From: a plasmid
Reading direction: 5' to 3' (one strand)
DNA length: 64,000 nucleotides
Sequence record: NZ_CP012903.1
Made by a program: the position numbers and the translations under genes. The notes below the pieces were generated by a model, which worked only from the letters and a program-made list of their open reading frames with translations, was not told where the DNA came from and did no database searches. Of the stretch, positions 5,890-57,249 are shown in pieces; the stretch's first letter is position 1, and each line of letters begins with the position of its first letter.

Positions 5890-8050
5890 CCGCTAAATAT
5901 CTCCTTTTGGGTTGTTAATAAAACATCCAATAAGTTGACTGTGCGTGAAAAAGAAAGTTTTGTGTGATGGCGTTGAAGATCGCACCGTTAAGCTCTTATG
6001 TGGGATGGTGCAGAGCTCGACGACTACCGATAAAACGCAACCGCCGCAAACAGACAAGAAAAAGCCCCAACTGATAACAGTTGGGGCTTCAGTATTGTGA
6101 TTGGTGGAGCAATAGCACCCTGAACCCAAAACCTTCTCGCTCAACCGGTAGTGGCTGATAACAACTCGTGAGGGCTATTGCGGGTTAAGCATTTAGCGAT
6201 GTCTAGGGCCAGACTGGACGTCTGAACGCAAGCCGCTGATACTGTACATAACCACAGTATCAGCGGAGGATACCCATGTCGCTGGCAAGGAACGCCACGG
6301 CGAGTCAATCGCCCACTCAAACAAACGGTTACGAACGCCACCAACCCGACCAGACGCTGCTCTACCAGCTGGTTGAGCAGCACTACCCAGCCTTCAAAGC
6401 CTCACTCGAAGCCCAAGGTCAACACCTGCCTCGCTACATCCAACAAGAATTCAACGACCTCCTCCAATGTGGCCGTCTGGAGTATGGTTTCATGCGGGTT
6501 CGCTGCGAGGATTGTCATCACGAGCGTCTGGTCGCCTTCAGCTGTAAACGACGCGGCTTTTGCCCTAGCTGCGGTGCCCGCCGGATGGCCGAGAGTGCGG
6601 CGCTGCTGATAGACGAAGTCTTCCCCAAGGAGCCCATTCGCCAGTGGGTGCTCAGCTTTCCTTTCCAGCTACGCTTTTTGCTGGCTCGCCATCCCCAGCT
6701 GATGGGCCAGGTCTTGAGTATCGTCTATCGTACACTCTCAACTCATCTGATCAAAAAAGCCGGTTACACCAAAGCCTCTGCACAAACTGGCTCAGTGACT
6801 CTTATCCAACGCTTTGGCTCCGCGCTAAATCTCAATGTCCACTACCACATGCTGTTTCTCGATGGTGTCTATGCCGAAGATGACTATGGCAAGCAACGCT
6901 TCCATCGTGTCAAGGCACCCACTTACGATGAGCTGAATACGCTCGCTCACACCCTCAGCCATCGCATCGCTCGCTGCATGGAAAAGCGTGGGATTTTGGA
7001 GCGTGATGCCGAGAATACGTGGTTGACACTGGAAGAGGGCGAAGACGATACGCTGACTCAATTACATGGTGCTTCGGTTACGTATCGCATTGCCGTCGGC
7101 CCCCAGCAAGGGCGCAAAGTCTTCACCCTGCAAACCTTGCCAGGGCGTGAGGATAAAGCCGACTCAAGCAGTCGAGTAGCCAACCATGCTGGTTTCTCGC
7201 TACACGCCGGTGTGATGGCCGAAGCGCATCAGCGGGATAAGCTTGAGCGCTTGTGTCGCTACATTAGTCGGCCAGCGGTTTCAGAAAAACGTCTGGCATT
7301 AACCGCCAATGGGCAGGTGCGTTACGAGCTCAAAACTCCGTACCGCAATGGCACCACCCATGTGATCTTCGAGCCGCTGGACTTCATCGCCAAACTCGCT
7401 GCGTTGGTACCTAAGCCGCGAGTCAACCTCACACGCTTCCACGGCGTCTTTGCACCGAACAGCAAACACCGAGTTCAAGTAACACCCGCCAAGCGGGGCA
7501 AGAAGCCCGACAAATCGGAAGGTCTCGATACTAACTGGCGTGACAAGAGTCCTGCAGAGCGCCACCGCGCCATGACCTGGATGCAACGCCTCAAGCGAGT
7601 CTTCAATATTGATATTGAAGTCTGCGAACACTGCGGCGGTCACGTCAAAGTGATTGCCAGCATCGAAGATCCGAAGGTCATTGAGCAGATTCTCAAGCAT
7701 CTGAAACAGAAAACAGCCAAGGCGAATGCCGCCAAGCAGCGTGAGCTGCCACCAGAACGAGCGCCGCCACTGACTCCCAGCCTGTTCGATCCATCACAGA
7801 GTCGTCTCTTTGACTGACGACCCCAAATCCAACACTGCTCAACACTGCCAACTTTTAAACGGGGCGGTGGGGCAGTTTGTATCTCTCGAGCTATCAGGCT
7901 AGAGATTTTACCGCCAAATCGAACCTTATTAGAGCGGTTTAGGCTGGACCGGCAGTTAAAATTGGGGCTTGAGCGGTAAACGAGTGAGGGAATTTCAGGT
8001 AAGATACTTCGGATGAGGAGCAAAAAGGTGGTTTATACTTCCTATACCCC
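5890..8050 (+). mobile_element. ISCR1: ISCR1 (IS91-like rolling-circle element); 5' boundary approximate
   Basis: 513-aa transposase plus the conserved downstream terminus GGTTTATACTTCCTATACC ending near 8050. Confidence 0.75.
6276..7817 (+). CDS. orf513: ISCR1 transposase (orf513)
   Basis: 513-aa MSLARNATASQSPTQTNGYERHQPDQTLLYQLVEQHYPAF... with the HxxH...Y motif family. Confidence 0.9.
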   Translation: MSLARNATASQSPTQTNGYERHQPDQTLLYQLVEQHYPAFKASLEAQGQHLPRYIQQEFNDLLQCGRLEYGFMRVRCEDCHHERLVAFSCKRRGFCPSCGARRMAESAALLIDEVFPKEPIRQWVLSFPFQLRFLLARHPQLMGQVLSIVYRTLSTHLIKKAGYTKASAQTGSVTLIQRFGSALNLNVHYHMLFLDGVYAEDDYGKQRFHRVKAPTYDELNTLAHTLSHRIARCMEKRGILERDAENTWLTLEEGEDDTLTQLHGASVTYRIAVGPQQGRKVFTLQTLPGREDKADSSSRVANHAGFSLHAGVMAEAHQRDKLERLCRYISRPAVSEKRLALTANGQVRYELKTPYRNGTTHVIFEPLDFIAKLAALVPKPRVNLTRFHGVFAPNSKHRVQVTPAKRGKKPDKSEGLDTNWRDKSPAERHRAMTWMQRLKRVFNIDIEVCEHCGGHVKVIASIEDPKVIEQILKHLKQKTAKANAAKQRELPPERAPPLTPSLFDPSQSRLFD

Positions 8051-32374: not shown

Positions 32375-32581
32375 TCACAGCTGTCCGGCCCGCAGCGGCG
32401 ATGTGCTGGCGAGATGAAATCCCAGACCGACACCCCCAACCATCAAGGCCAGGCCGACATAGAGCAGTCCACCGCTCTGCCAGCCGTAAGCCCGCATTAA
32501 AAACACCGCTGCCAGCACCAAGATCGGGCCTATCGTGCCGAGCGCGCCGGTTTTGCCAGCGATGCGCGTGATGAGTCCCAT
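32375..32581 (-). CDS. 68-aa cysteine-free hydrophobic ORF between merP and merA; its N-terminus resembles MerC (possible merC remnant)
   Basis: MGLITRIAGKTGALG... resembles MerC MGLMTRIADKTGALG but the rest lacks the metal-binding cysteines. Confidence 0.25.
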   Translation of the reverse strand: MGLITRIAGKTGALGTIGPILVLAAVFLMRAYGWQSGGLLYVGLALMVGGVGLGFHLASTSPLRAGQL

Positions 32582-38755: not shown

Positions 38756-39223
38756 GTGGAAAAGTTTCTGGAGTACGTAGGCGTCATGGAGCACCACTAC
38801 GGAAGTGCTGTAGCTGCGCAGTTTATCAGTGCCAATGCTGCCATTATTGCTGCTGATGATTCTGATGATGATTCCGAGTCATATTCGACCCGTGTTGAAG
38901 AGATCACATCCCTATTGGATGCGGTCAATAAAGCTGGTGGTGTACCTGATCACAGGCTTGTTGTTGAGCGTGTTAGCCCGAACTCTACCCGCGTTATTTT
39001 GAATGGCCCTCATGGTATGGTCTGGCGTTGCTATGTATTTCAGGACGATTTTATGTTCTGCTTTACTCGGGGTTTGAGGGCCAATGATGCAAAAAACCAC
39101 GCTAACAGCGTTAGTTCATTGTTTATATTGAAATTGATAGGTACTGCGTTTACAGCCACTTCAGTCGTCATGGTGGGGCTGAGGGACGGGTCCGCTTGGA
39201 AAAAGGAAATTATCCTACGTTAA
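38756..39223 (+). CDS. hypothetical protein (155 aa) with an acidic N-terminal region
   Basis: ORF with an RBS-like AGGATAGG upstream. Confidence 0.45.
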   Translation: MEKFLEYVGVMEHHYGSAVAAQFISANAAIIAADDSDDDSESYSTRVEEITSLLDAVNKAGGVPDHRLVVERVSPNSTRVILNGPHGMVWRCYVFQDDFMFCFTRGLRANDAKNHANSVSSLFILKLIGTAFTATSVVMVGLRDGSAWKKEIILR

Positions 39224-39231
39224 GCGTTTTA

Positions 39232-39269
39232 AGCTAACGGGTGATTTCGTTCCATTGAGCGCGAACCCC
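39232..39269. repeat. orphan Tn3-subfamily 38-bp terminal IR (element body would lie to the left)
   Basis: ...GATTTCGTTCCATTGAGCGCGAACCCC resembles the Tn3 IR ...GTTTTCGTTCCACTGAGCGTCAGACCCC. Confidence 0.5.
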
Positions 39270-39334
39270 TGACCGTAAGGGATGTACGAAATGATCCGGC
39301 TGTCCGTTAATGGTTTTGCTTACTTTCGGACATG

Positions 39335-39816
<482 letters not shown>

Positions 39817-40191
39817 CTAAGCGTATGGGGATTAACTTATTTAAAATTAAGCGCACATTTTTGGGGGAGTCGAGAAAGCTATTTTGGTCTCGTGATCGCC
39901 GGGATTTTCTTTCTAATTATGCACTGTCGCTATTGCGCAAAAAATGTCGTTATCAAAAATGATGGGCTTGCACCCATGAGAGAATTGATTAATATCGGGG
40001 TCAGTTTGGATATGGGGTTTCTCGCCCATTTCATCCAAAAGTCTAAAGTTTGCTCGAACCTCTGTGATATCAGGATTTTAAGGGAGAAGTGGTTTATTAT
40101 AAGTAATTTATTTTGCTGCTTTCATGGATTTTGATACTTTCGAGATCGTATGCCTTGAACAACCTATCAGGTTTTCTATCTGACTATAACT

Positions 40192-40740
40192 TTACCCCTC
40201 CATCAACAAGCATTCAATTTTTTGGTGTAATATTTTATTGATCGGGCGACCTTTGTATTTTCCTTCTTGTTTGGCTTTTTGCACTCCTTGGGCTTGGCGG
40301 CGACGTCTATCTTCGTAATCCTTTCTCGCAACCGCTGCCAGCATGTCTAACATCATACTGTTAAAGGCGGCAAGCATTCGTTCCGTAAACTCATCGGTGC
40401 GATTCATAAATTGATAGCTGGTTGGGAGATCTAAAGAAACAACCTTCAACCCTTTATGTCCAATGAGATATTTTAATTTTTCCCAGTCATCCGTATTCAA
40501 GCGGCTAATTCTATCCACCTGTTCAACTTAAATAATATCACCTGGCATGGCCACATTGAGTAAGCGAAAGAGTTCAGGTCTGTGAAGTTGGGCGCCCGAT
40601 TCATTCTCTTCAAACCAGCAGGCAATCTGTAGTCCCATTCCCTCGACAAATTTCAATAGTTCATTTTTTGCTCTTGATGCATCCTGTTCATGGGTTGATG
40701 CGCGAAGATATCCTTTAATGGCGTAATGCCGTCTTTATTG
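40192..40740 (-). pseudogene. serine recombinase paralog inactivated by a TTA-to-TAA nonsense codon and lacking an ATG start
   Basis: Translation ...YLRASTHEQDASRAKNELLKFVEGMGLQIACWFEENESGAQLHRPELFRLLNVAMPGDII*VEQVDRISRLNTDDW... is collinear with the intact resolvase at 41598-42230 (PGDILLVEQIDRLTR). Confidence 0.6.
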
Positions 40741-40994
40741 AGGATGAGGTTGTTCTGTGTTTCTAATAGCTGGCGTTGATTGAGTTCAGACTCTAACCGT
40801 TGGCGTTGTTCGAATTGAATAGCATCACGATTTGAGAGCGTCAGAATATTGGCTGCCTTGCTCGCATGAGCAGCAAATAAAGTTGCAAGTATGAACACGA
40901 AACAGATAGATTTGATTGACATAAAATTACGAATAGTTTTCATTTTCAACGTTATAATTGACCGTAATTTACAGTTTGGGTTGAGATATCTCAA
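40653..40994 (-). CDS. small secreted protein with a signal peptide
   Basis: MSIKSICFVFILATLFAAHASKA signal-like N-terminus; its 3' end overlaps the recombinase pseudogene. Confidence 0.35.
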   Translation of the reverse strand: MRYLNPNCKLRSIITLKMKTIRNFMSIKSICFVFILATLFAAHASKAANILTLSNRDAIQFEQRQRLESELNQRQLLETQNNLILNKDGITPLKDIFAHQPMNRMHQEQKMNY

Positions 40995-41295
40995 TCATTC
41001 GTTTATTAATGAAACTATTTAGATCAATTTATGCCAGTGAATCAGCAGTTTTTAGTGATTAAATGTTTGGATAAGTAATTTGGTTATTTTTATTTCTGTT
41101 TTTTGTGGGTAAAATGAAATAAAAAAATAACTTATCTTGTATTAGTGATTTATTTGTCTTTATATTTCATTGCATGTGATTTTATTCAAAATAGTGACAT
41201 TAACGTTAAGTCTGATGGGGGATAAAAGTAGATGTAATATTATATTTTGTGACAGGTAATCGTGATATACCTCATTTCTCAATAACACATTAATT

Positions 41296-41568
41296 CTATT
41301 TGGTTTTTAAAGACCAGCTGCTTCCACCATAAAGTGTAGAACCAATGACTTCTTCCCATATATTGTGTTCGATGAGTAAGTATTTAATCGACTGGAATTC
41401 GATATGCGTTAAAACGCCTTCTTCTTCCCCATTTTGTGATAGTAAAAGATAACCTTCAGGTATGCGAACCGAGGATTGAAAGGCGGCCTTTGCAAATAAA
41501 CGATAAAATGTGGTGATTGTATATCCTCGACGTAATAGTCCGAGGAGTTGTTCTGTTGGTATCGCCAT
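41296..41568 (-). CDS. hypothetical protein (90 aa) directly downstream of the resolvase
   Basis: ORF only. Confidence 0.35.
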   Translation of the reverse strand: MAIPTEQLLGLLRRGYTITTFYRLFAKAAFQSSVRIPEGYLLLSQNGEEEGVLTHIEFQSIKYLLIEHNIWEEVIGSTLYGGSSWSLKTK

Positions 41569-41597
41569 ACGTTTTTCCTCTCTAAATAGAATGCTGA

Positions 41598-42230
41598 TTA
41601 TTTTTGTTGATAACGTAGTTGAATTCGACAGACTTGTGAACGACTATAGCCAGTAGCCTCAGCGGTTTCTCGAATACTGAGTCCTTTGGTTTTTCGGTAA
41701 TAAATCACTTTCTCATGACGCTCTTTATCCGCCTGCTTTCCTTTGTATTTACCTAAAGTCTGAGCGCGCTCGATACCTTGTTTTTGTCGTTCGCGGCGAC
41801 TGATCCAATCTTTGTGTGACATTGCTGCCATCAAATCAATCAACATGGTATTAATAGCAGAAAGTACAGCTTGAGTGATAGGGTCATTCTGTGTGGGATC
41901 TTGGTTATTTAAGGCTTGCCAAGATGTTGGTATATCGAGACTGACAATCCGTAACTCATGTTGCTCTATTTGTTTTTTTAATTTTAGCCAATCGGTATTG
42001 TTTAATCGAGTGAGCCTATCAATTTGTTCAACTAATAAAATATCACCTTGTTGACTATCACTGAGTAAACGCGAAAGTTCAGGGCGTTCTAATTTTGTGC
42101 CACTAATATGCTCGCGATAATAATTCGCAATTCGTCCTCCTCGTTCTTCAACAAAATCATTTAGCATATTTTTTGCTCTATCTGCATATTGATCTTCAGA
42201 AGAGGCTCTGAGGTAAGCTCGTATGAACAT
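41598..42230 (-). CDS. tnpR: serine recombinase/resolvase (210 aa) of the Tn3-family element
   Basis: MFIRAYLRASSEDQ... with the catalytic Ser region and a C-terminal HTH (GLSIRETAEATGYSRSQVCRIQ). Confidence 0.85.
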   Translation of the reverse strand: MFIRAYLRASSEDQYADRAKNMLNDFVEERGGRIANYYREHISGTKLERPELSRLLSDSQQGDILLVEQIDRLTRLNNTDWLKLKKQIEQHELRIVSLDIPTSWQALNNQDPTQNDPITQAVLSAINTMLIDLMAAMSHKDWISRRERQKQGIERAQTLGKYKGKQADKERHEKVIYYRKTKGLSIRETAEATGYSRSQVCRIQLRYQQK

Positions 42231-42424
42231 TTTTTCACCAATCTATCGCATTTAAATTATCTCATTAAAAGTATCGCATATAGATTATTGCATTGATAGT
42301 GATTTGATGCATTTTAGGTTCTCGCTTTGGGGTATACCCTAATGCTATAAGTCTAATTGACTTGATTTTATCAAATAGGCTAACTAAAATTATTGTGTTA
42401 ATAATTAACACAAAAGGTGGTGCT
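42231..42424. promoter_or_regulatory. putative res/promoter region between divergent tnpR and parD
   Basis: AT-rich segment with repeated ATCGCAT / TTGCATTGATAG motifs. Confidence 0.35.
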
Positions 42425-42667
42425 ATGGCTCGTACAACAAGTGTAACAATCGGGGCTCAATTGGATGAGTTTGTCAATCAACTCATTTCGTCAGGAAGAT
42501 ATGGCTCAACAAGTGAAGTCGTTCGCTCTGCTCTACGTTTACTTGAGGTCCAAGAAAAGCAAACAGCAGCATTGAAGATGTTAATTGATGCAGGTGAGCA
42601 AAGTGGTGAGTCGTCGTTAACACTCCAAGATATCGCTAAGAAAGTGAAGAACGCTCATAATGTATAA
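42425..42667 (+). CDS. parD: ParD-family antitoxin (ribbon-helix-helix, 80 aa)
   Basis: MARTTSVTIGAQLDEFVNQLISSGRYGSTSEVVRSALRLLE... Confidence 0.8.
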   Translation: MARTTSVTIGAQLDEFVNQLISSGRYGSTSEVVRSALRLLEVQEKQTAALKMLIDAGEQSGESSLTLQDIAKKVKNAHNV

Positions 42668-42953
42668 ACTTTCTAATTTAGCGGCTAAAGACTTTGAAGG
42701 GATATTCGAGTATACCCTCGTGAATTTTGGTATTAGGAAAGCAGATGAATACACTAAAAACTTACACGATGTATTAGAAGTGATTAGCCCTAATCCATTG
42801 ATAGGAATCGAGTGTACAGAAATTGCAGTTGGGGTTAGGCGTCATAACCACTCTAAGCATGCAATTTTTTACCGATATAGAACCGATGATATTTTTGTTA
42901 TCCGAATTCTTCATCAACAAATGGAGCCACTAAAACACTTTTATTTTGAGTAG
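42660..42953 (+). CDS. parE: ParE/RelE-family toxin (97 aa)
   Basis: 8-nt overlap with parD; ...EIAVGVRRHNHSKHAIFYRYRTDDIFVIRILHQQMEPLKHF. Confidence 0.8.
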   Translation: MYKLSNLAAKDFEGIFEYTLVNFGIRKADEYTKNLHDVLEVISPNPLIGIECTEIAVGVRRHNHSKHAIFYRYRTDDIFVIRILHQQMEPLKHFYFE

Positions 42954-43091
42954 TTTGAAAAGTAAGTAGACAAATATTTTAATAGCATTATTTTCATGCT
43001 GAAGATTAAAGTACCCTCTTTAGTTTTATCAGAAAGATAACCTAAAAAAGGTACTTATATGAATATTTAGCTATTATTTATTAATACAGCA

Positions 43092-43397
43092 TTACATTTT
43101 ATCATCTTTAGCCATGCTATCTTTAGCCATGCTATCTTTAGCCATGCTATCTTTAGCCATGCTATCTTTAGCCATGCTATCTTTAGCCATGCTATCTTTA
43201 GCCATGCTATCTTTAGCCATGCTATCTTTAGCCATGCTATCTTTAGCCATGCTATCTTTAGCCATGCTGTCTTTAGCCATGCTGTCTTTAGCCATGCTAT
43301 CTTTAGCCATGCTGTCTTTAGCCATGCTGTCTGCATAAGAAGCTGCAGCTGTCATACATAACGCACTAGTTAAGATTACCAATATTAATTTTTTCAT
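43092..43397 (-). CDS. secreted repeat protein: signal peptide plus (DSMAK)x14
   Basis: [22 protein letters not shown] then [10 protein letters not shown]...DDKM; the other two frames of the repeat give AWLKI/AMLSL runs and are rejected. Confidence 0.55.
43111..43335. repeat. tandem array of about 15 copies of a 15-bp unit GCCATGCT(A/G)TCTTTA
   Basis: Direct reading; units are contiguous and in phase with the minus-strand coding frame. Confidence 0.9.
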
Positions 43398-43539
43398 AAC
43401 AAATTTACTCTCTATCAGTTTATTTATATTAATACTACCATTATAACTATGGGTTATTGATTAAAAAATGATTACAAATTTGTCATAAAGCGAGGAGTAA
43501 GAAATATGGGCTTGTTGCAAATAATAAATTTGCGCATTT

Positions 43540-43778
43540 TTCACTCAGCGCTAAGAAAGTGAAGAACGCTCATAATGTATAAACTTTCCAATTTAGCGGC
43601 TAAAGACTTTGAAGGGATATTCGAGTATACAGAAATTGCAGTTGGGGTTAGGCGTCATAACCACTCTAAGCATGCAATTTTTTACCGATATAGAACCGAT
43701 GATATTTTTGTTATCCGAATTCTTCATCAACAAATGGAGCCACTAAAACACTTTTATTTTGATGAGATTGACCTGTAA
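43540..43778 (+). pseudogene. partial direct duplicate of the parD 3' end plus parE with a 90-bp internal deletion
   Basis: GCTAAGAAAGTGAAGAACGCTCATAATGTATAAACTTTC... repeats 42630-42700; the 67-aa ORF is ParE missing LVNFGIRKADEYTKNLHDVLEVISPNPLIGIEC. Confidence 0.6.
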
Positions 43779-44006
43779 ACTCGAAAACTTCAGTTAACTC
43801 ATTTTTTATAAATCCCTTCTCATTAACTAGCTTAGTTTCTTTAAACTTATCGTGCGGAACTGGTTCTCTATAAGTCGATTTTTATAAGAAATGCGTACCA
43901 TATTGCTTGGTGCAGATAAGGTAGACTTAAATTGCACTTTTATATCGATTACGCGCGCGTCCATTATATGATGTTGTTTATTTTTAGAGGATAGAACATA
44001 ACCACA

Positions 44007-47000
44007 ATGAAAGAGATTAAATCAGGCCGTATTCAAATTTTGACAGAACAGGAGATTCATGAGCTCTATTCTCGTCCAATATTTAATCAAATTGAGCGTG
44101 AAGAATATTTTTCATTAGATCCGAGTATAAAAAAAATCCTCACTAAAATGGGAAAAATTGAAACGAAAATATATTTAATTCTTCTGATTGGTTATTTTCG
44201 CGCGAAGCCTGTTGTCGCTCAATTTAAACTACGAGAGGTTAAACAAGATGTCGACTATATTTATGCGACACATTTTCCAAATAGAAAGCCGAAATACCCC
44301 TTTATTGCTAAAAGTACTCGAGCAACATTGATCGCTAAAATGCATGAAATACTGGGTTTTTCGCGGTTATTAAGACAAGATAAACAAGCCTTGATAGAGC
44401 GTTTGGGTGATGTCGCAACAATCTGTACATACCCCAAATATATTTTTGATGAATGCCTCGCTTTTTTAGGTCAAAACAGAATTGGATTAGTGGGTTATTC
44501 CACTTTGCAAAATATGATCACCACGGTTTTAGCTAATGAGAGGCATCGTACCGAGTTGATCCTTTCAAATAGCGTGCCACCAATAATACATAAAAAATTA
44601 AAGAAGATACTGCATACAAAAGGGGTTTTAAATAGTCTATCTGGCCAACAAGGCGCAGCTAAAGATTTTACACCGACAGAGCTCGCAAGTGAAATTGAAA
44701 CGCATAATGCCATAAAAAGTGTTTATCCCGACGTAAAACGTCTTGTTGGTGAATTGGGATTATCATTAGGTAATTTAAGCTATTATGCATCGATTATTCA
44801 ACATCAATCGATTTATAAAATTCGTCGATTTCCCGAATGGCAAGGCATGTTATATCTGGTTTGTTATCTATTTTTTCGCTACCAAGAAACTAATGATAAA
44901 TTGGTAACAGCTTTTTTATATGTGACGAGAAAGCAAAGGGAAGCTGCGAGTGCTTTAGCTAAGTTACGCATTGCAGAAGAACTGGAAATTATTCGTGAAA
45001 AGTTAATGCATGCGGGTAATATTTTACACCTCTTTGTTGATGAAAACGTCAGTGACAATACGCAATTTGGTGATATTCGCCAAAATGCATTTGCAATGAT
45101 GTCTAAAGATGAAATTCAGTTAATAAGTCAACATCTTAATAAGAATAGTTTTGATAAAACCCATTATGAGTGGCTATACATTGATACACAATACAGAAAA
45201 ATTGCGAATACAATGAGGTCACTCTTTCTCGCGATTGATATCGAGTGCGAACCAGGATTACAACTACTATCTTCCCAATTATTAACAGCAAAATCAGAAC
45301 TTCAAAAAGATAAGCACATTTCTACCGTCGATCAGCGGTTACTGTTAAAAAACGATAAACCTTTTATCCTGATAGATGAACAGGTTAATACTCAACGATT
45401 TGAATACTATTTATACCAAAAAGTGGCTCGGATGATTGAGAGTAACAATATTTACATCAATGAAAGCGCCAGCAACAAGCGTTTAGACGATGATCTGATT
45501 TCAGCCACCGAGTGGAAAAAAAGCCATGTCATCATTCAAAAAACAGGATTAACTCGGCTCAATACACCGATACAACAAACGCTTTCGGAATTAACGCAAA
45601 AACTGAGAGACCAAATGGAGCGAATTGGTCGCAATATCCATGATGGAGCCAATGATTTCGTGACACTTCAACCGCGTTCAAATCAGTTAACATGGAAACT
45701 GGCGAATAAACGCTGGAAAGATGACATTGATAATCCCATATATAACCAGCTCCAACATATGGGGATCATTGAAATTATGGACTATGTTCATCAAAAAACG
45801 GGTTACTTAGATGCATTTAAAAATATCGCCATCAAAAAAGAAAAACACTAAGGCCAAAGAGGGCGATTTACTCGCTTGCATATTTGGAAATGGCTCAAAC
45901 TATGGTGTTCATCATATGTCATCAATATCAGATAGAGCCATCGGTGTGCTTAGAGCCGTCAATGATGGTTATATTAGGCCTGAAACAACGAGTGAAGCTA
46001 ATGATATGATAGCTGATGCTTTAGCAAAACTCCCCATTTTCAAATATTATACGATTAACGAAAGTGCCCCATTTGGTAGTATTGATGGCCAAAAACATGG
46101 TTGCCGAATCAATACATTTAAAGCCCGTTTTTCTGCTAAATATTTCCGAAAAGGGAAAGGCGTATCAGCACTCACATTAGTTTCAAATCATGTACCAATA
46201 AATACGAAAGTGATTTCAGCCAATGAATATGAGGCTCACCACGCATTCGATTTACTCTATAATAATACCAGCCATATTCAGCCCAAAACATTAGCAACAG
46301 ACACGCATGGCGTTAACAATGTAAACTTTGCTATCCTTGATCTCTTTGGGTATCAGTTTGCCCCGCGATATGCAAAATTTAAACACGTTTTTAATGAATT
46401 GTTTGAGATCGAGTATGATGAAATCCTTTCCCTGAAACTTAAAAAATCGCTCAACTTATCACTCATTCAAGAAGAGTGGGAAAATATTCAATGGATAATT
46501 TGTTCATTAAGCCGTAAAACGACGACACAAAGCACGGTGATTACTAAGCTTTCTAACAGTAAGAAAAACAATCGCACCTTAGCGGCTCTTCGTGAATATG
46601 ACCGAATAATTAAGTGTTTATACGTTCTCGATTATGTTGATGACAAAATGCTCAGGCAGTTTGTCCAACAAGCACTTAATCGGGGTGAGGCTTACCATCA
46701 ATTACGGCGTGCAATTGCGTCAATTAATGGTAATCAATTCAGAGGTGGCGATGATTACCAGATAGAACAATGGAATGATTGTGCTCGTATCATTGCTAAC
46801 TGCATTATTTATTATAATTCTGCATTATTATCCAGTTTGATTGAAAAATTTGCGCGTGAAAATAATCAAGAAGCGGTGAATATGATAGCTGAGTTATCAC
46901 CTGTCGCATGGCAGCATATACAGCTGGCCGGTAATTACACCTTTGGCCTTAAAAAAGATAATATTGTACTGGAAAGATTACTGGAGAATTTAGATCCTCT

Positions 47001-47034
47001 TATTTCAGAAGAGTCGTTAAGCTTAGCGGCATAG
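44007..47034 (+). pseudogene. tnpA: Tn3-family transposase TnpA split by a frameshift into 614-aa and 407-aa ORFs
   Basis: N-terminal DUF4158-like part and C-terminal DDE part (...KKKNTKAKEGDLLACIFGNGSNYGVHHM...); the frames overlap at 45811-45851 within an A-rich run. Confidence 0.8.
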
Positions 47035-47132
47035 TCTATTAATATTATTAAACTATATATCGGCTGTAGTCCTTGATATCAAAGGGCTACAAGCAAACTT
47101 TGGACTTTTCGATGAAATGGGCACACAACCCC

Positions 47133-47211
47133 AAAATCGGTGGAGCTGCATGACAAAGTCATCGGGCATTATCTGAACATAAAACACTATCAATAAGTTG
47201 GAGTCATTACC
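47133..47211 (+). mobile_element. IS1: IS1 3' fragment (about positions 690-768, IRR end)
   Basis: CAAAATCGGTGGAGCTGCATGACAAAGTCATCGGGCATTATCTGAACATAAAACACTATCAATAAGTTGGAGTCATTACC. Confidence 0.85.
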
Positions 47212-47408: not shown

Positions 47409-47777
47409 CTAATTCACCGTAAGAACAATTTTCCCAACATGCTTGCCGGACTCCATCAATGCATGCGCGCGTGCTGCTTCGCGTAACGGGAATGTGCTGT
47501 GAATCATGGGATGGCAACGACCTGCATTGAGAATCGGCCAGATATTTTTAAGCAAGTCATTGGCAATTTCGGCTTTTTCGACCGAAGTTCGTGCTCGCAT
47601 CGTTGAACCCGTGACAACCGCTCGCTTCAACGCGAGTTCTTGCAGATCCACTTGATCTGCGAAAGCTCCGCCAAGGAAGCCAATGATTACCAGCCGGCCA
47701 TCCATTCCTAAACTCCTCATATTTCGGGAGAAATAGGATGCACCCATTATATCGAGAATGATATCGGCGTTTTTCAA
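47409..47777 (-). pseudogene. qor: quinone oxidoreductase (MDR/zinc-ADH family) 3' fragment
   Basis: ...IIGFLGGAFADQVDLQELALKRAVVTGSTMRAR...GKHVGKIVLTV C-terminal domain; continues from the 5' fragment at 49395-50030. Confidence 0.7.
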
Positions 47778-47797
47778 GGTAGTTGTCGCCTGAGCTG

Positions 47798-48745
47798 TTA
47801 AGCAGCTTCTTTTTTGTTCTCTGGGTTTAATTTCACATCACCGATTTCCTCCCAGTTTCTAATACCCTTTGACCAGCGGTTAGGGTTCTTTTTTTGCGCT
47901 TTGGTATATAGCTCATGGCGTCTTGCCAATATCGCTTTATCTTCACCATTATGGCGTTGCGCTGGTGTCACGAATTTGATGCGACTATGCCTGTGCTCAG
48001 TGTTGTACCATTGAGCGAAGCCTTTCATCCAAGCTCTTGCATCTTCAAGGCTTTTAAAGCCTTCGCTTGGCCAGCGGTGACTGTATTTGACCGTGCGGAA
48101 CAATGATTCTGAGTACGGATTATCATTGCTGACACCGGGGCGGCTACGAGAGCCAATGACACCCATATCAAGCATTTTGGCTTGCATCGTCAAACATTTC
48201 ATCGGGCTACCGTTATCTGAATGCAATACCACGTCTTTTTTAACGCATTTCTCAGACCAGAGCGTGCGCTCAAGCAATTGGGCAGCATGTTCACCTGATT
48301 CACTGTCATGAACTTCCCACCCGACAACCTTACGGCTGAAGATGTCGATTATCATGTAGAGGTAGAAGAACCGACCAATGACCGTTGACGGGCAGTAACT
48401 AATATCCCAAGTCCACACTTGGTTTGGCGCTGTCGCTGTGTACCCCTTAGGTTTAGCTCGGCTACCTTTAGGTTTTGCTTTACCTCGATGGGCTAGCTGG
48501 TCATTGGCTTTCAACACACGATAAAAGCTCGATTCAGACGCGAGATATTGCCCGTTATCTGCCAGCATTGGCACTATCTGACTTGGCCCTAAATTGGCGT
48601 ATTCTTCTTGGTTACAGGTAGCTAATATCGCTTGCTGCTCTTCCTCAGTGAGCTTGTTACTCGGTTCTGGCCTATCAGCTGTAGGTCTTTTGTCACCACT
48701 GATTTCACCGCTTTCCTGCCAGCGTTGTAATGTGCGTACAGACAT
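47798..48745 (-). CDS. IS3-family OrfB (DDE transposase)
   Basis: 315-aa protein with an rve integrase core. Confidence 0.75.
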   Translation of the reverse strand: MSVRTLQRWQESGEISGDKRPTADRPEPSNKLTEEEQQAILATCNQEEYANLGPSQIVPMLADNGQYLASESSFYRVLKANDQLAHRGKAKPKGSRAKPKGYTATAPNQVWTWDISYCPSTVIGRFFYLYMIIDIFSRKVVGWEVHDSESGEHAAQLLERTLWSEKCVKKDVVLHSDNGSPMKCLTMQAKMLDMGVIGSRSRPGVSNDNPYSESLFRTVKYSHRWPSEGFKSLEDARAWMKGFAQWYNTEHRHSRIKFVTPAQRHNGEDKAILARRHELYTKAQKKNPNRWSKGIRNWEEIGDVKLNPENKKEAA

Positions 48746-48837
48746 ACCAACTTCTTCACAGGCTTTCTCTTTTCTAGCACCTGAGCCGACTGCTTCATCA
48801 ATCAGAGATGCGTAATGCTGCCTATCTGTGAGTGAGG

Positions 48838-49329
48838 TTAATTGTCCTCGTCTTCCCCCCAGTAGGCATTTAACTTTTTTCTGAGCACCAACAACGCTGC
48901 CGTTTCAGCAAGCGCAGCATCTTTGCGCTTTAACTCTCTTTCTAACTCTTTAATCCGCTTACGATCATCCTTTCGCTCTTGGGTTAATTGCTTACGTTGC
49001 TGGGCTTTAGTTTGATTGCCTGCAATGCAGCTTCGCTTCCATTCTTTAACTTGCTCAGGGTAAAGCCCTTTTTCACGGCAATACTCACTTAACTCAATTT
49101 CGCTCAATGCTGCTGTTTCTAAAACAATTGAGAACTTTTGCTCTGGTGACCAACCATCTGAACTATTGCTATCAGCCAAACTAGAACCTGCTTTTAAATA
49201 CTTATCTCGCCATGAATACAAAGTAGATAAGTTGATACTTTCTAGCTTTGCGAATTGGCGTAATGATAAGCCACTTTCAACCAGCTTTCTAATGATGGCT
49301 TTCTTATGATCTTCAGGATAATGCTTCAC
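48838..49329 (-). CDS. IS3-family OrfA
   Basis: 163-aa HTH protein. Confidence 0.7.
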   Translation of the reverse strand: MKHYPEDHKKAIIRKLVESGLSLRQFAKLESINLSTLYSWRDKYLKAGSSLADSNSSDGWSPEQKFSIVLETAALSEIELSEYCREKGLYPEQVKEWKRSCIAGNQTKAQQRKQLTQERKDDRKRIKELERELKRKDAALAETAALLVLRKKLNAYWGEDEDN

Positions 49330-49394
49330 TAATATCTAACTTACCGCTCCCTGTTATATTTTTATGAAAAACTGAGGCGACAACTATCCTGACA

Positions 49395-50030
49395 CAGGGG
49401 GATATCAACGCCACGGCCATCCGTTTGCTTCAAAATGAAATCAGAAAAATCAGTTGTCCGGTAGTTGACTGGCGTAGCGCCAAGCTCTGCGATCACATCG
49501 CATTTATCATCTGATCCAGCCGTCGCATATGCCTCGATACCGATTTCGCGGCATAGCATCAACGCGGTTGTGCCGATACCACTTGTTCCCCCATGAATCA
49601 GAACACTCTGACCCTGTGTTGCGCCACCAATCTTGAACAAGTTTGCCCAGACGGTGAACAGAGTCTCAGGAAGTGCCGCCGCTGCTATCATTGACATGCT
49701 GTCTGGCACCGGCAGTGTCTGGCTTTCCGGCACGATGCAATACTCACCATAACCACCGCCATTCGTCAGAGCACAGACTCGGTCACCAATCTTTACGCCC
49801 GTGACGCCTTCTCCAATTGATGAAACCGTTCCAGCGACCTCAAGACCAGGAATAGGGGTTACGTCGTCAGGCATAGGGTAATGACCCTGGCGTTGAATGA
49901 CGTCAGGACGATTAACACCTGCGGCCTTGACGCGAACCAAAATTTCCCCAGCCTTTGGCACCGGAATCGTTGTCTGAACGGGCGTTAAAACCTCTGGCCC
50001 GCCAGGCTCAGAGATTTCAATGACAGTCAT
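49395..50030 (-). pseudogene. qor: quinone oxidoreductase 5' fragment
   Basis: MTVIEISEPGGPEVLTPVQTTIPVPKAGEILVRVKAAGVNRPDVIQRQGHYP... GroES-like N-terminal domain. Confidence 0.7.
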
Positions 50031-55993: not shown

Positions 55994-56001
55994 TGAAGTG
56001 G

Positions 56002-57176
<1,175 letters not shown>

Positions 57177-57249
57177 GTGCTCACCTGTGATGTTATTGAG
57201 GTAAGAATATCACCTCTAGTCAGGTGGCCAAATTAACTATGCCACTTCA

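Follow-up and report, generated by a model that had tools for sequence, protein, structure and literature searches.

Positions 40014-47132 of a 64,000-nucleotide stretch of plasmid DNA (sequence record NZ_CP012903.1; hereafter the window) form a 7,119-bp segment bounded by imperfect inverted repeats and holding two resolvase genes, a ParDE toxin-antitoxin (TA) pair and a Tn3-family transposase gene, tnpA. We consider it probable, at roughly three chances in four, that this segment is a mosaic of three pieces whose second junction was most likely made by a resolvase, and not a unit transposon that arrived together with its cargo. The first piece would be the old, dead left end of a Tn6369-family transposon, consisting of the left terminal inverted repeat (IRL) and a tnpR pseudogene. 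The second would be 3.2 kb of Providencia plasmid backbone carrying a truncated shlB gene, a small open reading frame (ORF), an intact resolvase gene (resolvase2) with its putative res, ParDE and a gene for an MXKDX-repeat protein. The third would be the right half of a second, recent Tn6369-family copy, with half of res site I, tnpA and the right terminal inverted repeat (IRR). Junction J1 joins the first two pieces and junction J2 the last two. An earlier interpretation made from the letters of the window (the sequence-only reading) had instead proposed a previously undescribed transposon from a low-GC donor, carrying parDE and a duplicated resolvase and decaying where it had inserted.

The segment ends and tnpA belong to the Tn6369 family

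A repeat search paired the termini as 60-nt arms (40013-40072 and 47074-47133) that are 82% complementary, bearing out the predicted inverted repeats; their 30-nt core occurs twice in the 64-kb window, where shuffled sequences give an expectation of 0. IRL (40014..40072, plus strand) begins GGGGTT, has a conserved core at 40014-40054 and is 100% identical in P. rettgeri p.BML2526 (locus L002), locus L006 and pNR1418-2 (L007), and IRR (47074..47132, minus strand) has the same sequence as the IRR of two intact transposon copies (L003 and L004). Terminal repeats of about 38 bp starting GGGG are typical of the Tn3 family and support the proposed Tn3-type structure. The segment is also, as had been noted, far poorer in GC than its flanks (45-51%), although its value is 36.4% and not 34%.

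The transposase gene (44007..47034, plus strand) is present as two ORFs, 44007-45851 and 45811-47034, which match DUF4158 (2.5e-23) and DDE_Tnp_Tn3 (2.9e-116) in Pfam, respectively, and together encode a large DDE transposase with the N-terminal DUF4158 and the DDE_Tnp_Tn3 domain of the Tn3 family. Pfam agreed equally with the earlier calls of a resolvase at 41598-42230 and of parD-parE. The two ORFs are split by a +1 frameshift, an extra C at 45829, such that the window reads ATCGCCATC where five relatives read ATCGCATC; the frameshift reported previously is present in the window, but it lies between A-runs and is not a slip within one. When this C is deleted the product is a TnpA of 1008 aa, not of the 1021 aa reconstructed before, and is 100% identical to the intact L003 and L004 copies, from which the right arm (43918-47132) differs by 0 mismatches and 1 gap, the inserted C itself. 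An intact 1008-aa product is encoded in L002 and L007. We rejected programmed frameshifting, given the uninterrupted ORF at this position in five relatives.

We also weighed whether the frameshift is a sequencing error in a plasmid sequenced around 2012, which would leave the pT-OXA-181 element (the counterpart of the segment, described below) intact and potentially active. We regard this as doubtful. For an error speak the single base affected, which lies in a CC doublet, and the absence of any other difference between the right arm and the intact copies over 3,215 bp; against it, the site is no long homopolymer, and the same extra C stands in the RefSeq record, whose annotation divides tnpA into two coding sequences, as well as in the structurally different window, two sequences whose independence is unproven. 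The lack of a target-site duplication (TSD) and the mosaic origin would hold even with an intact tnpA.

The transposition module is not new, as had been claimed, but a variant of Tn6369, a Tn3-like transposon registered in P. rettgeri pRB151-NDM (CP017672; Marquez-Ortiz et al. 2017, PMC5554438), which we identified, by position in that plasmid, with a 9.2-kb tnpA-res-tnpR-betT-usp-sulP element. The right arm is 91% identical to Tn6369 in nucleotide sequence over 3.2 kb and the TnpA proteins are 94.4% identical, the first 38 bp of the tnpA-end inverted repeat differ at one position, and the two elements share a homologous tnpR, the divergent tnpR-res-tnpA layout and an origin in Providencia plasmids. 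In Tn6369 the tnpR is intact, beyond it lie three passenger genes, namely betT and those for a universal stress protein and a SulP transporter, and there is no parDE. None of these passengers is present in the window element, whose tnpR is dead and which holds plasmid backbone between tnpR and tnpA. A catalogued element with near-identical inverted repeats and transposition genes thus exists, with a different gene content, and we read the segment as a relative or derivative of the Tn6369 family and not as Tn6369 itself.

Many Providencia plasmids have a simpler tnpR<-res->tnpA element, and the tnpR-tnpA unit of PROV114-type plasmids was labelled 'truncated Tn6369' in a 2025 paper (PMC12184191). 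Outside the Tn6369 family, the closest transposases named by the Prokaryotic Genome Annotation Pipeline (PGAP), among the matches listed, are those of IS3000 (34% amino acid identity) and Tn4401 (30%). Tn6901, a Tn3-family transposon of Rts1 and pPrY2001-like plasmids, was considered and set aside as a different element that carries frmRAB/glo genes.

The interior is colinear with a transposon-free plasmid backbone

The soil P. rettgeri plasmid pVCSW10.2 (L008) holds, in order, shlA-shlB, an ORF, a resolvase gene, parD and parE, with no Tn6369 sequence within the fetched stretch, and positions 40714-42958 and 43621-43937 of the window are colinear with it at 91-97% identity. Its shlB is an intact 564-aa gene for a ShlB/FhaC-family two-partner-secretion transporter, and its first 77 aa match those of the window but for one residue; the window keeps only this 5' fragment, 77 codons with a signal peptide (40714..40943, minus strand). 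In p15628B_125 and pRB151-NDM (loci L011 and L006) the parDE block continues into a hypothetical gene and then into plasmid parA-parB. The colinearity and the truncated backbone gene argue that the central 3.2 kb, parDE included, is Providencia plasmid backbone and not transposon cargo, as parDE had been taken to be. The MXKDX gene and a partial parE duplicate are missing from pVCSW10.2 and are a later addition to the backbone block.

The intact serine resolvase, resolvase2, is a 210-aa protein (41598..42230, minus strand) with Ser10 in YLRASSEDQ, a Pfam Resolvase match (1.6e-21) and a helix-turn-helix (HTH) domain. Because it is only 44% identical in amino acid sequence to Tn6369-type TnpR, it is not a recent paralogue of that protein; what had looked like a duplicated resolvase is a dead transposon TnpR and a live resolvase of the plasmid backbone. 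At about 70% nucleotide identity, resolvase2 has homologues in more than 1,200 enterobacterial plasmids, where they stand alone as plasmid resolvases. Nearest to it are the stand-alone resolvases of several kinds of plasmid, including IncF and Photobacterium plasmids, together with tnpR from another Tn3-family element found in Providencia.

Conservation continues for about 120 bp upstream of resolvase2: E. coli IncF and Photobacterium resolvase loci share this non-coding stretch, as does the spacer between tnpR and tnpA in another Tn3-family element, and all aligned resolvase2-type loci diverge directly after the terminal dyad. This conservation suggests that 42240..42351 is a putative res belonging to resolvase2; half-sites of the TATCGCAT type recur in it, and a dyad resembling site I has its centre at GTATAC (42332-42337). 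In comparative alignment the resolvase2-parD spacer holds a res type other than that of Tn6369, and a simple half-site consensus scan found no Tn6369-type half-sites in this spacer. The solitary resolvases of IncF, Photobacterium and Providencia plasmids and one tnpR-res unit (L005 7888-8700) resemble resolvase2 and its res at about 70-72% nucleotide identity, with the same TATCGCAT repeats and dyad, but to the right of the dyad they have unrelated DNA or tnpA and no parDE. The L005 unit is part of a second Providencia Tn3-family element (L005 7888-9027, NZ_CP123374.1) whose tnpR and res are 72% identical in nucleotide sequence to resolvase2 and its res, and in which tnpA occupies the position that parDE holds in the backbone module.

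The two transposon arms differ in their identity to intact copies

The left arm contains the transposon's own serine resolvase gene as a pseudogene (40108..40713, minus strand), delimited by alignment to intact 209-aa TnpR genes (L003, L004, L005 and Tn6369). It is 86-89% identical in nucleotide sequence to intact Tn6369-type tnpR, and a fragment of it matches Pfam Resolvase. It bears three lesions: the loss of the first ~7 codons at J1, a TTA>TAA change at 40528-40530, and an AAA>TAA change at 40192-40194 that removes the HTH. The sequence-only reading had recognised the lost start and the TTA-to-TAA stop; it had missed the second nonsense codon and the full span of the gene. Its view that the element is decaying in this plasmid fits the dead tnpR and the frameshifted tnpA. 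The left arm is 100% identical among the window, L002, L006 and L007 and only 86-89% identical to the intact copies L003, L004 and L005.

At J1 (40713..40714), tnpR codon ~7 is fused to shlB codon 77, and a three-way comparison of the window, the backbone in L008 and the transposon copies in L003 and L005 revealed a join without homology. Because J1 is found without J2 in four plasmids (L006, L009, L010 and L029), we infer that J1 is older than J2; it would be an illegitimate deletion that preceded it. The IRL of the dead left arm meets four different left flanks in different plasmids, each exactly at the terminal GGGG, which suggests adjacent rearrangements mediated by transposase acting in trans.

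The surroundings of the segment are likewise not those of a simple insertion. The IncT (Rts1-like) backbone extends to 39068 and is followed by 945 bp (39069-40013) of a gabD/quinone-oxidoreductase island, a fragment that is identical in p.BML2526 and whose island is found in IncHI2 and Providencia plasmids. On the right, IRR abuts the last ~79 bp of IS1B (47133-47211) and then the quinone oxidoreductase gene of the same island. These two flanks lie 2,432 bp apart in P. stuartii pLarge (L014) and S. Senftenberg pSSE-ATCC-43845 (L015), with gabD and most of IS1B between them, and for this reason we conclude that the site has suffered a 2.4-kb deletion and not a simple insertion. The 7.1-kb structure lacks the 5-bp TSD of Tn3-family elements: none was present in the three complete copies (0/3; window gatat/aaaat, L002 gatat/taata, L007 ttata/taata), and no TSD-flanked copy of the 7.1-kb unit was found in the plasmids, species-representative genomes and metagenome contigs searched. 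The 4.0-kb minimal tnpR-res-tnpA element of p15628B_125 (L005), by comparison, has a perfect one, ATAAA/ATAAA. An ISCR-type end had been entertained for the right flank and was rejected on mapping to L014 and L015, which identified the IS1B remnant. Within the left flank, a 122-bp IS1 end (39333-39454) is cut by an IS5 fragment (39437-39821).

These observations bear on the proposal that the segment is a distinct, uncatalogued unit transposon whose own cargo comprises a signal-peptide gene, parDE and a duplicated resolvase, and which inserted in one piece into an enterobacterial resistance region and is now decaying. We consider this very improbable. The inverted-repeat pair and the Tn3-type tnpA are real, the same 7.1-kb architecture occurs in three plasmids, and PGAP gives TnpA no element name, its nearest PGAP-named transposase among the matches listed being that of IS3000 at 34%. 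However, the module belongs to a family registered in 2017, the interior is colinear with a backbone free of the transposon and holds a truncated backbone gene, and the two resolvases are 44% identical. Moreover, relative to the intact copies the left arm differs by 11-14% whereas the right arm differs by 0%, and no copy has a TSD while the site shows the 2.4-kb deletion.

J2 falls in the middle of a res site I dyad

J2 (43910..43937) is a hybrid Tn6369-type res site I dyad, GTGCAGATAAGG-TAGA-CTTAAATTGCAC, with its left half from the backbone and its right half from the transposon. Homology to the backbone stops at 43929-43941 and homology to the transposon starts at 43903-43910, and the overlap is the 28-bp dyad. 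The left half of the dyad is GGTGCAGATAAGGTA. The parental dyads are GTGCAGATAAGG TATA CTTTAATTGAAC in the backbone and GTGTAGTTAAGG TAGA CTTAAATTGCAC in the transposon, and the half-sites across the crossover are GTGCAGATAAGGTA|TACTTTAATTGAAC and GTGTAGTTAAGGTA|GACTTAAATTGCAC, respectively, which places the crossover within a shared AAGGTA (43918-43923) at the dyad centre. Within the tnpR-tnpA spacer of the intact transposon, this dyad is the one nearest tnpA, and two more dyads follow toward tnpR, an arrangement that we read as the layout expected of res site I. The similarity of the backbone dyad, taken with its upstream neighbour, to the transposon res was significant, with a local score of 21 compared with 10.5 +/- 1.6 (maximum 18) for 500 shuffles. 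A junction in the middle of such a dyad suggests a resolvase-type exchange; recombination breakpoints at res site I have been described for TnTsp1 and Tn5501.12 (Lima-Mendez et al. 2020, PMC7157771).

Both L002 and L007 have the same J2, and in them the left 3.9 kb of the window is identical save for tandem-repeat copy number and one difference. Their right arms differ from that of the window at 130 of 3,215 positions (4%), and IRR and the right flank differ too. Between the window and L002 the alleles switch from the first polymorphic site to the right of the dyad. To the right of the backbone dyad, too, L008, L011/L006 and L009/L010 each have different DNA. Collectively, these patterns point to J2 being the product of site-specific recombination at res site I, which either took place twice or was succeeded by a swap of the arm. 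The 28-bp hybrid site had no exact match in species-representative genomes or in Joint Genome Institute (JGI) metagenome contigs.

The same mosaic could in principle have gained J2 by RecA-dependent or microhomology-mediated recombination, with the right-arm alleles reflecting later homologous exchange within tnpA, a course of events that we judge improbable. The differing central dinucleotides of the parental dyads would speak for it, as would the ~60 bp of imperfect similarity between the backbone and transposon res regions; perfect identity at the crossover, however, covers only 7 bp, exactly at the dyad centre, and three other backbones diverge at the same dyad. The allele switch, moreover, runs through IRR into different flanks, so that a gene-conversion tract would have to end without homology on its right.

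The most likely origin of J2 is resolvase-catalysed recombination between the transposon res and the homologous backbone dyad downstream of parE. If a Tn6369-family copy had inserted downstream in the same orientation, a TnpR-mediated deletion from the backbone site to the res of that copy would be a simple route. The product would have a '<tnpR A> T> tnpA>'-like layout (A, antitoxin; T, toxin) in which a plasmid resolvase and its res replace the dead tnpR. Where a Tn3-family element would have its cointegrate resolution system, the segment has a dead tnpR and a res reduced to a hybrid site I with diverged neighbouring sequence, together with an intact resolvase of foreign origin and the conserved res-like region beside it.

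Tn6369-type site I dyads occur about 150 bp downstream of parE in L008 (6378-6405), L011 (5782-5810) and L006 (8911-8940). The dyad-bearing loci L011 and L006 have no adjoining tnpA arm, and the adjacent resolvase has a different res.

We further propose, tentatively and as a possibility with less than even odds, that the backbone dyad serves as a docking site at which a nearby Tn6369-family tnpA-IRR arm is fused to the resolvase-ParDE module by a single TnpR deletion. Fusion would then have occurred at least twice, or the arm would have been swapped at the site. If so, this locus would be a natural intermediate in the stepwise recruitment of TA pairs beside res site I by Tn3-family transposons.

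Several observations sit uneasily with a resolvase-built mosaic. At J2 itself, one parental dyad has AG as its central dinucleotide and the other AT, a mismatch that should impede exchange by a serine recombinase, and the shared stretch at the crossover is only 7 bp, leaving room for another mechanism. J1 has no mechanistic explanation. The 'backbone' block of resolvase, parDE and dyad might in its turn be what is left of an older transposon: the tnpR-res of another Tn3-family element (L005) is closely homologous to resolvase2 and its res, and a further plasmid locus (L013, NZ_CP123366.1) has a Tn6369-like inverted repeat downstream of the same resolvase-parDE block.

The mosaic in its IncT plasmid and its relatives

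The segment is 100% identical to its counterpart in the Citrobacter freundii IncT plasmid pT-OXA-181 (NC_020123.1), of which the window is a structural variant. Related DNA was found in 85 plasmids, chiefly of Providencia (67), Moellerella (9) and Proteus (6), which identifies the low-GC donor, correctly anticipated, as a member of the Morganellaceae. None of 5,426 complete E. coli genomes matched the segment (0/5,426), and the inverted-repeat motif is hosted chiefly by Providencia genomes, with further occurrences in Vibrio and a few metagenome-assembled genomes. Only three records contain the whole 7.1-kb architecture in one piece: pT-OXA-181, p.BML2526 and pNR1418-2.

Because of the dead tnpR, the frameshifted tnpA and the absent TSD, we regard the segment in the IncT plasmid as immobile unless a related TnpA acts in trans, whereas the L002 and L007 mosaics, with an intact tnpA, might transpose as a unit. 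The role that remains to the segment is probably maintenance of the IncT plasmid, by multimer resolution through resolvase2 and its res and by post-segregational killing through ParDE. An IncT carbapenemase plasmid in Citrobacter has a Providencia-derived resolvase/ParDE maintenance block that may aid its persistence.

Comparison with known resolvase-toxin-antitoxin arrangements

The par locus of RK2/RP4 combines parCBA, in which the ParA resolvase acts with a res site, with a divergent parDE, and couples multimer resolution to post-segregational killing. The window module is alike in that a serine resolvase gene and parDE diverge from an intergenic region holding a resolution site, a putative one in the window; it differs in having no parB or parC equivalents and in being enclosed by transposon ends, and the comparison is one of layout.

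TA-bearing Tn3-family transposons (PMC7157771) include TnSpu1, TnAbapMCR4.3 and Tn1412, with the '<tnpR A> T> tnpA>' layout, and Tn5501, with ParDE. The segment shares with such elements a TA pair placed beside res site I, with tnpA on one side and a divergently oriented resolvase gene on the other. In the same survey TA pairs of Tn3-family elements consistently adjoin res site I, and their route of acquisition is called unclear. The res-site-I hybrids TnTsp1 and Tn5501.12 resemble the segment in having their recombination breakpoint at res site I. ParE-ParD pairs were recorded there only in the '<T <A tnpR> tnpA>' layout, whereas ParD-ParE of the window stands in the other. The window also departs from these TA-bearing elements in that the resolvase beside its TA pair is of plasmid type and not the element's original TnpR, and in what separates parE from tnpA, namely the MXKDX gene, the parE duplication and a further site I of hybrid make-up.

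We classify the segment as a relic of a known kind: a mosaic of the Tn6369 family, as yet unnamed, with a plasmid stability module enclosed in it. In pT-OXA-181 and several NDM/IMP-era Providencia plasmids, the corresponding region should be annotated as a Tn6369-family mosaic around this module and not as a new transposon with a duplicated resolvase. The series from transposon-free backbone, through J1 only, to J1 plus J2 with two tnpA arms is a rare natural series of TA capture at res site I. As modular exchange at res is already well known, the advance is illustrative and not conceptual.

Further features of the segment and window

The toxin-antitoxin genes, parD (42425-42667) and parE (42660-42953), both on the plus strand and divergent from resolvase2, are supported by RefSeq annotation and by Pfam matches to ParD_antitoxin (2.7e-20) and ParE_toxin (2.1e-16), and they show the order of a type II pair, with the antitoxin gene first and adjacent to the toxin gene with an 8-bp overlap (42660-42667). 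A partial second copy of the parD 3' end and parE (43549..43778, plus strand) forms direct repeats with the first; it has a 102-bp internal deletion and keeps the ancestral parE 3' end. Between the two copies lies the gene for the MXKDX pentapeptide-repeat protein (43092..43397, minus strand), with a signal peptide predicted from its translation. It contains a 15-bp tandem array at about 43104-43332 encoding (S/D)MAKD repeats, and the protein is annotated at 86 to 141 aa among plasmids, the array varying in copy number in the manner of a variable-number tandem repeat. Where a single signal-peptide protein had been reported there are two such ORFs, the one reported (40653-40994) consisting of the first 77 codons of the truncated ShlB/FhaC gene. 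A 90-aa ORF (41296..41568, minus strand) accompanies the backbone resolvase; it had no Pfam match and is annotated beside the resolvase in L008, L006 and L009.

In L013, the Tn6369-like inverted repeat lies at 7055-7113, downstream of the resolvase-parDE-MXKDX block, is 84% identical to the IRR of the window and is separated by only 80 bp from the beginning of an unrelated Tn3-family tnpA.

The window departs from NC_020123.1 outside the segment. About 189 bp of that record are missing from the window near 32540 (32536-32545), and ~1.25 kb of window DNA at 55995-57245 is without colinearity to it. A 1,635-bp insertion at 47766-49400, present in the window and in none of NC_020123.1, L014 and L015, holds an IS3-family-like transposase ORF (47798-48745, minus strand) and splits the NAD(P)H-quinone oxidoreductase gene, with GATATC on both sides.

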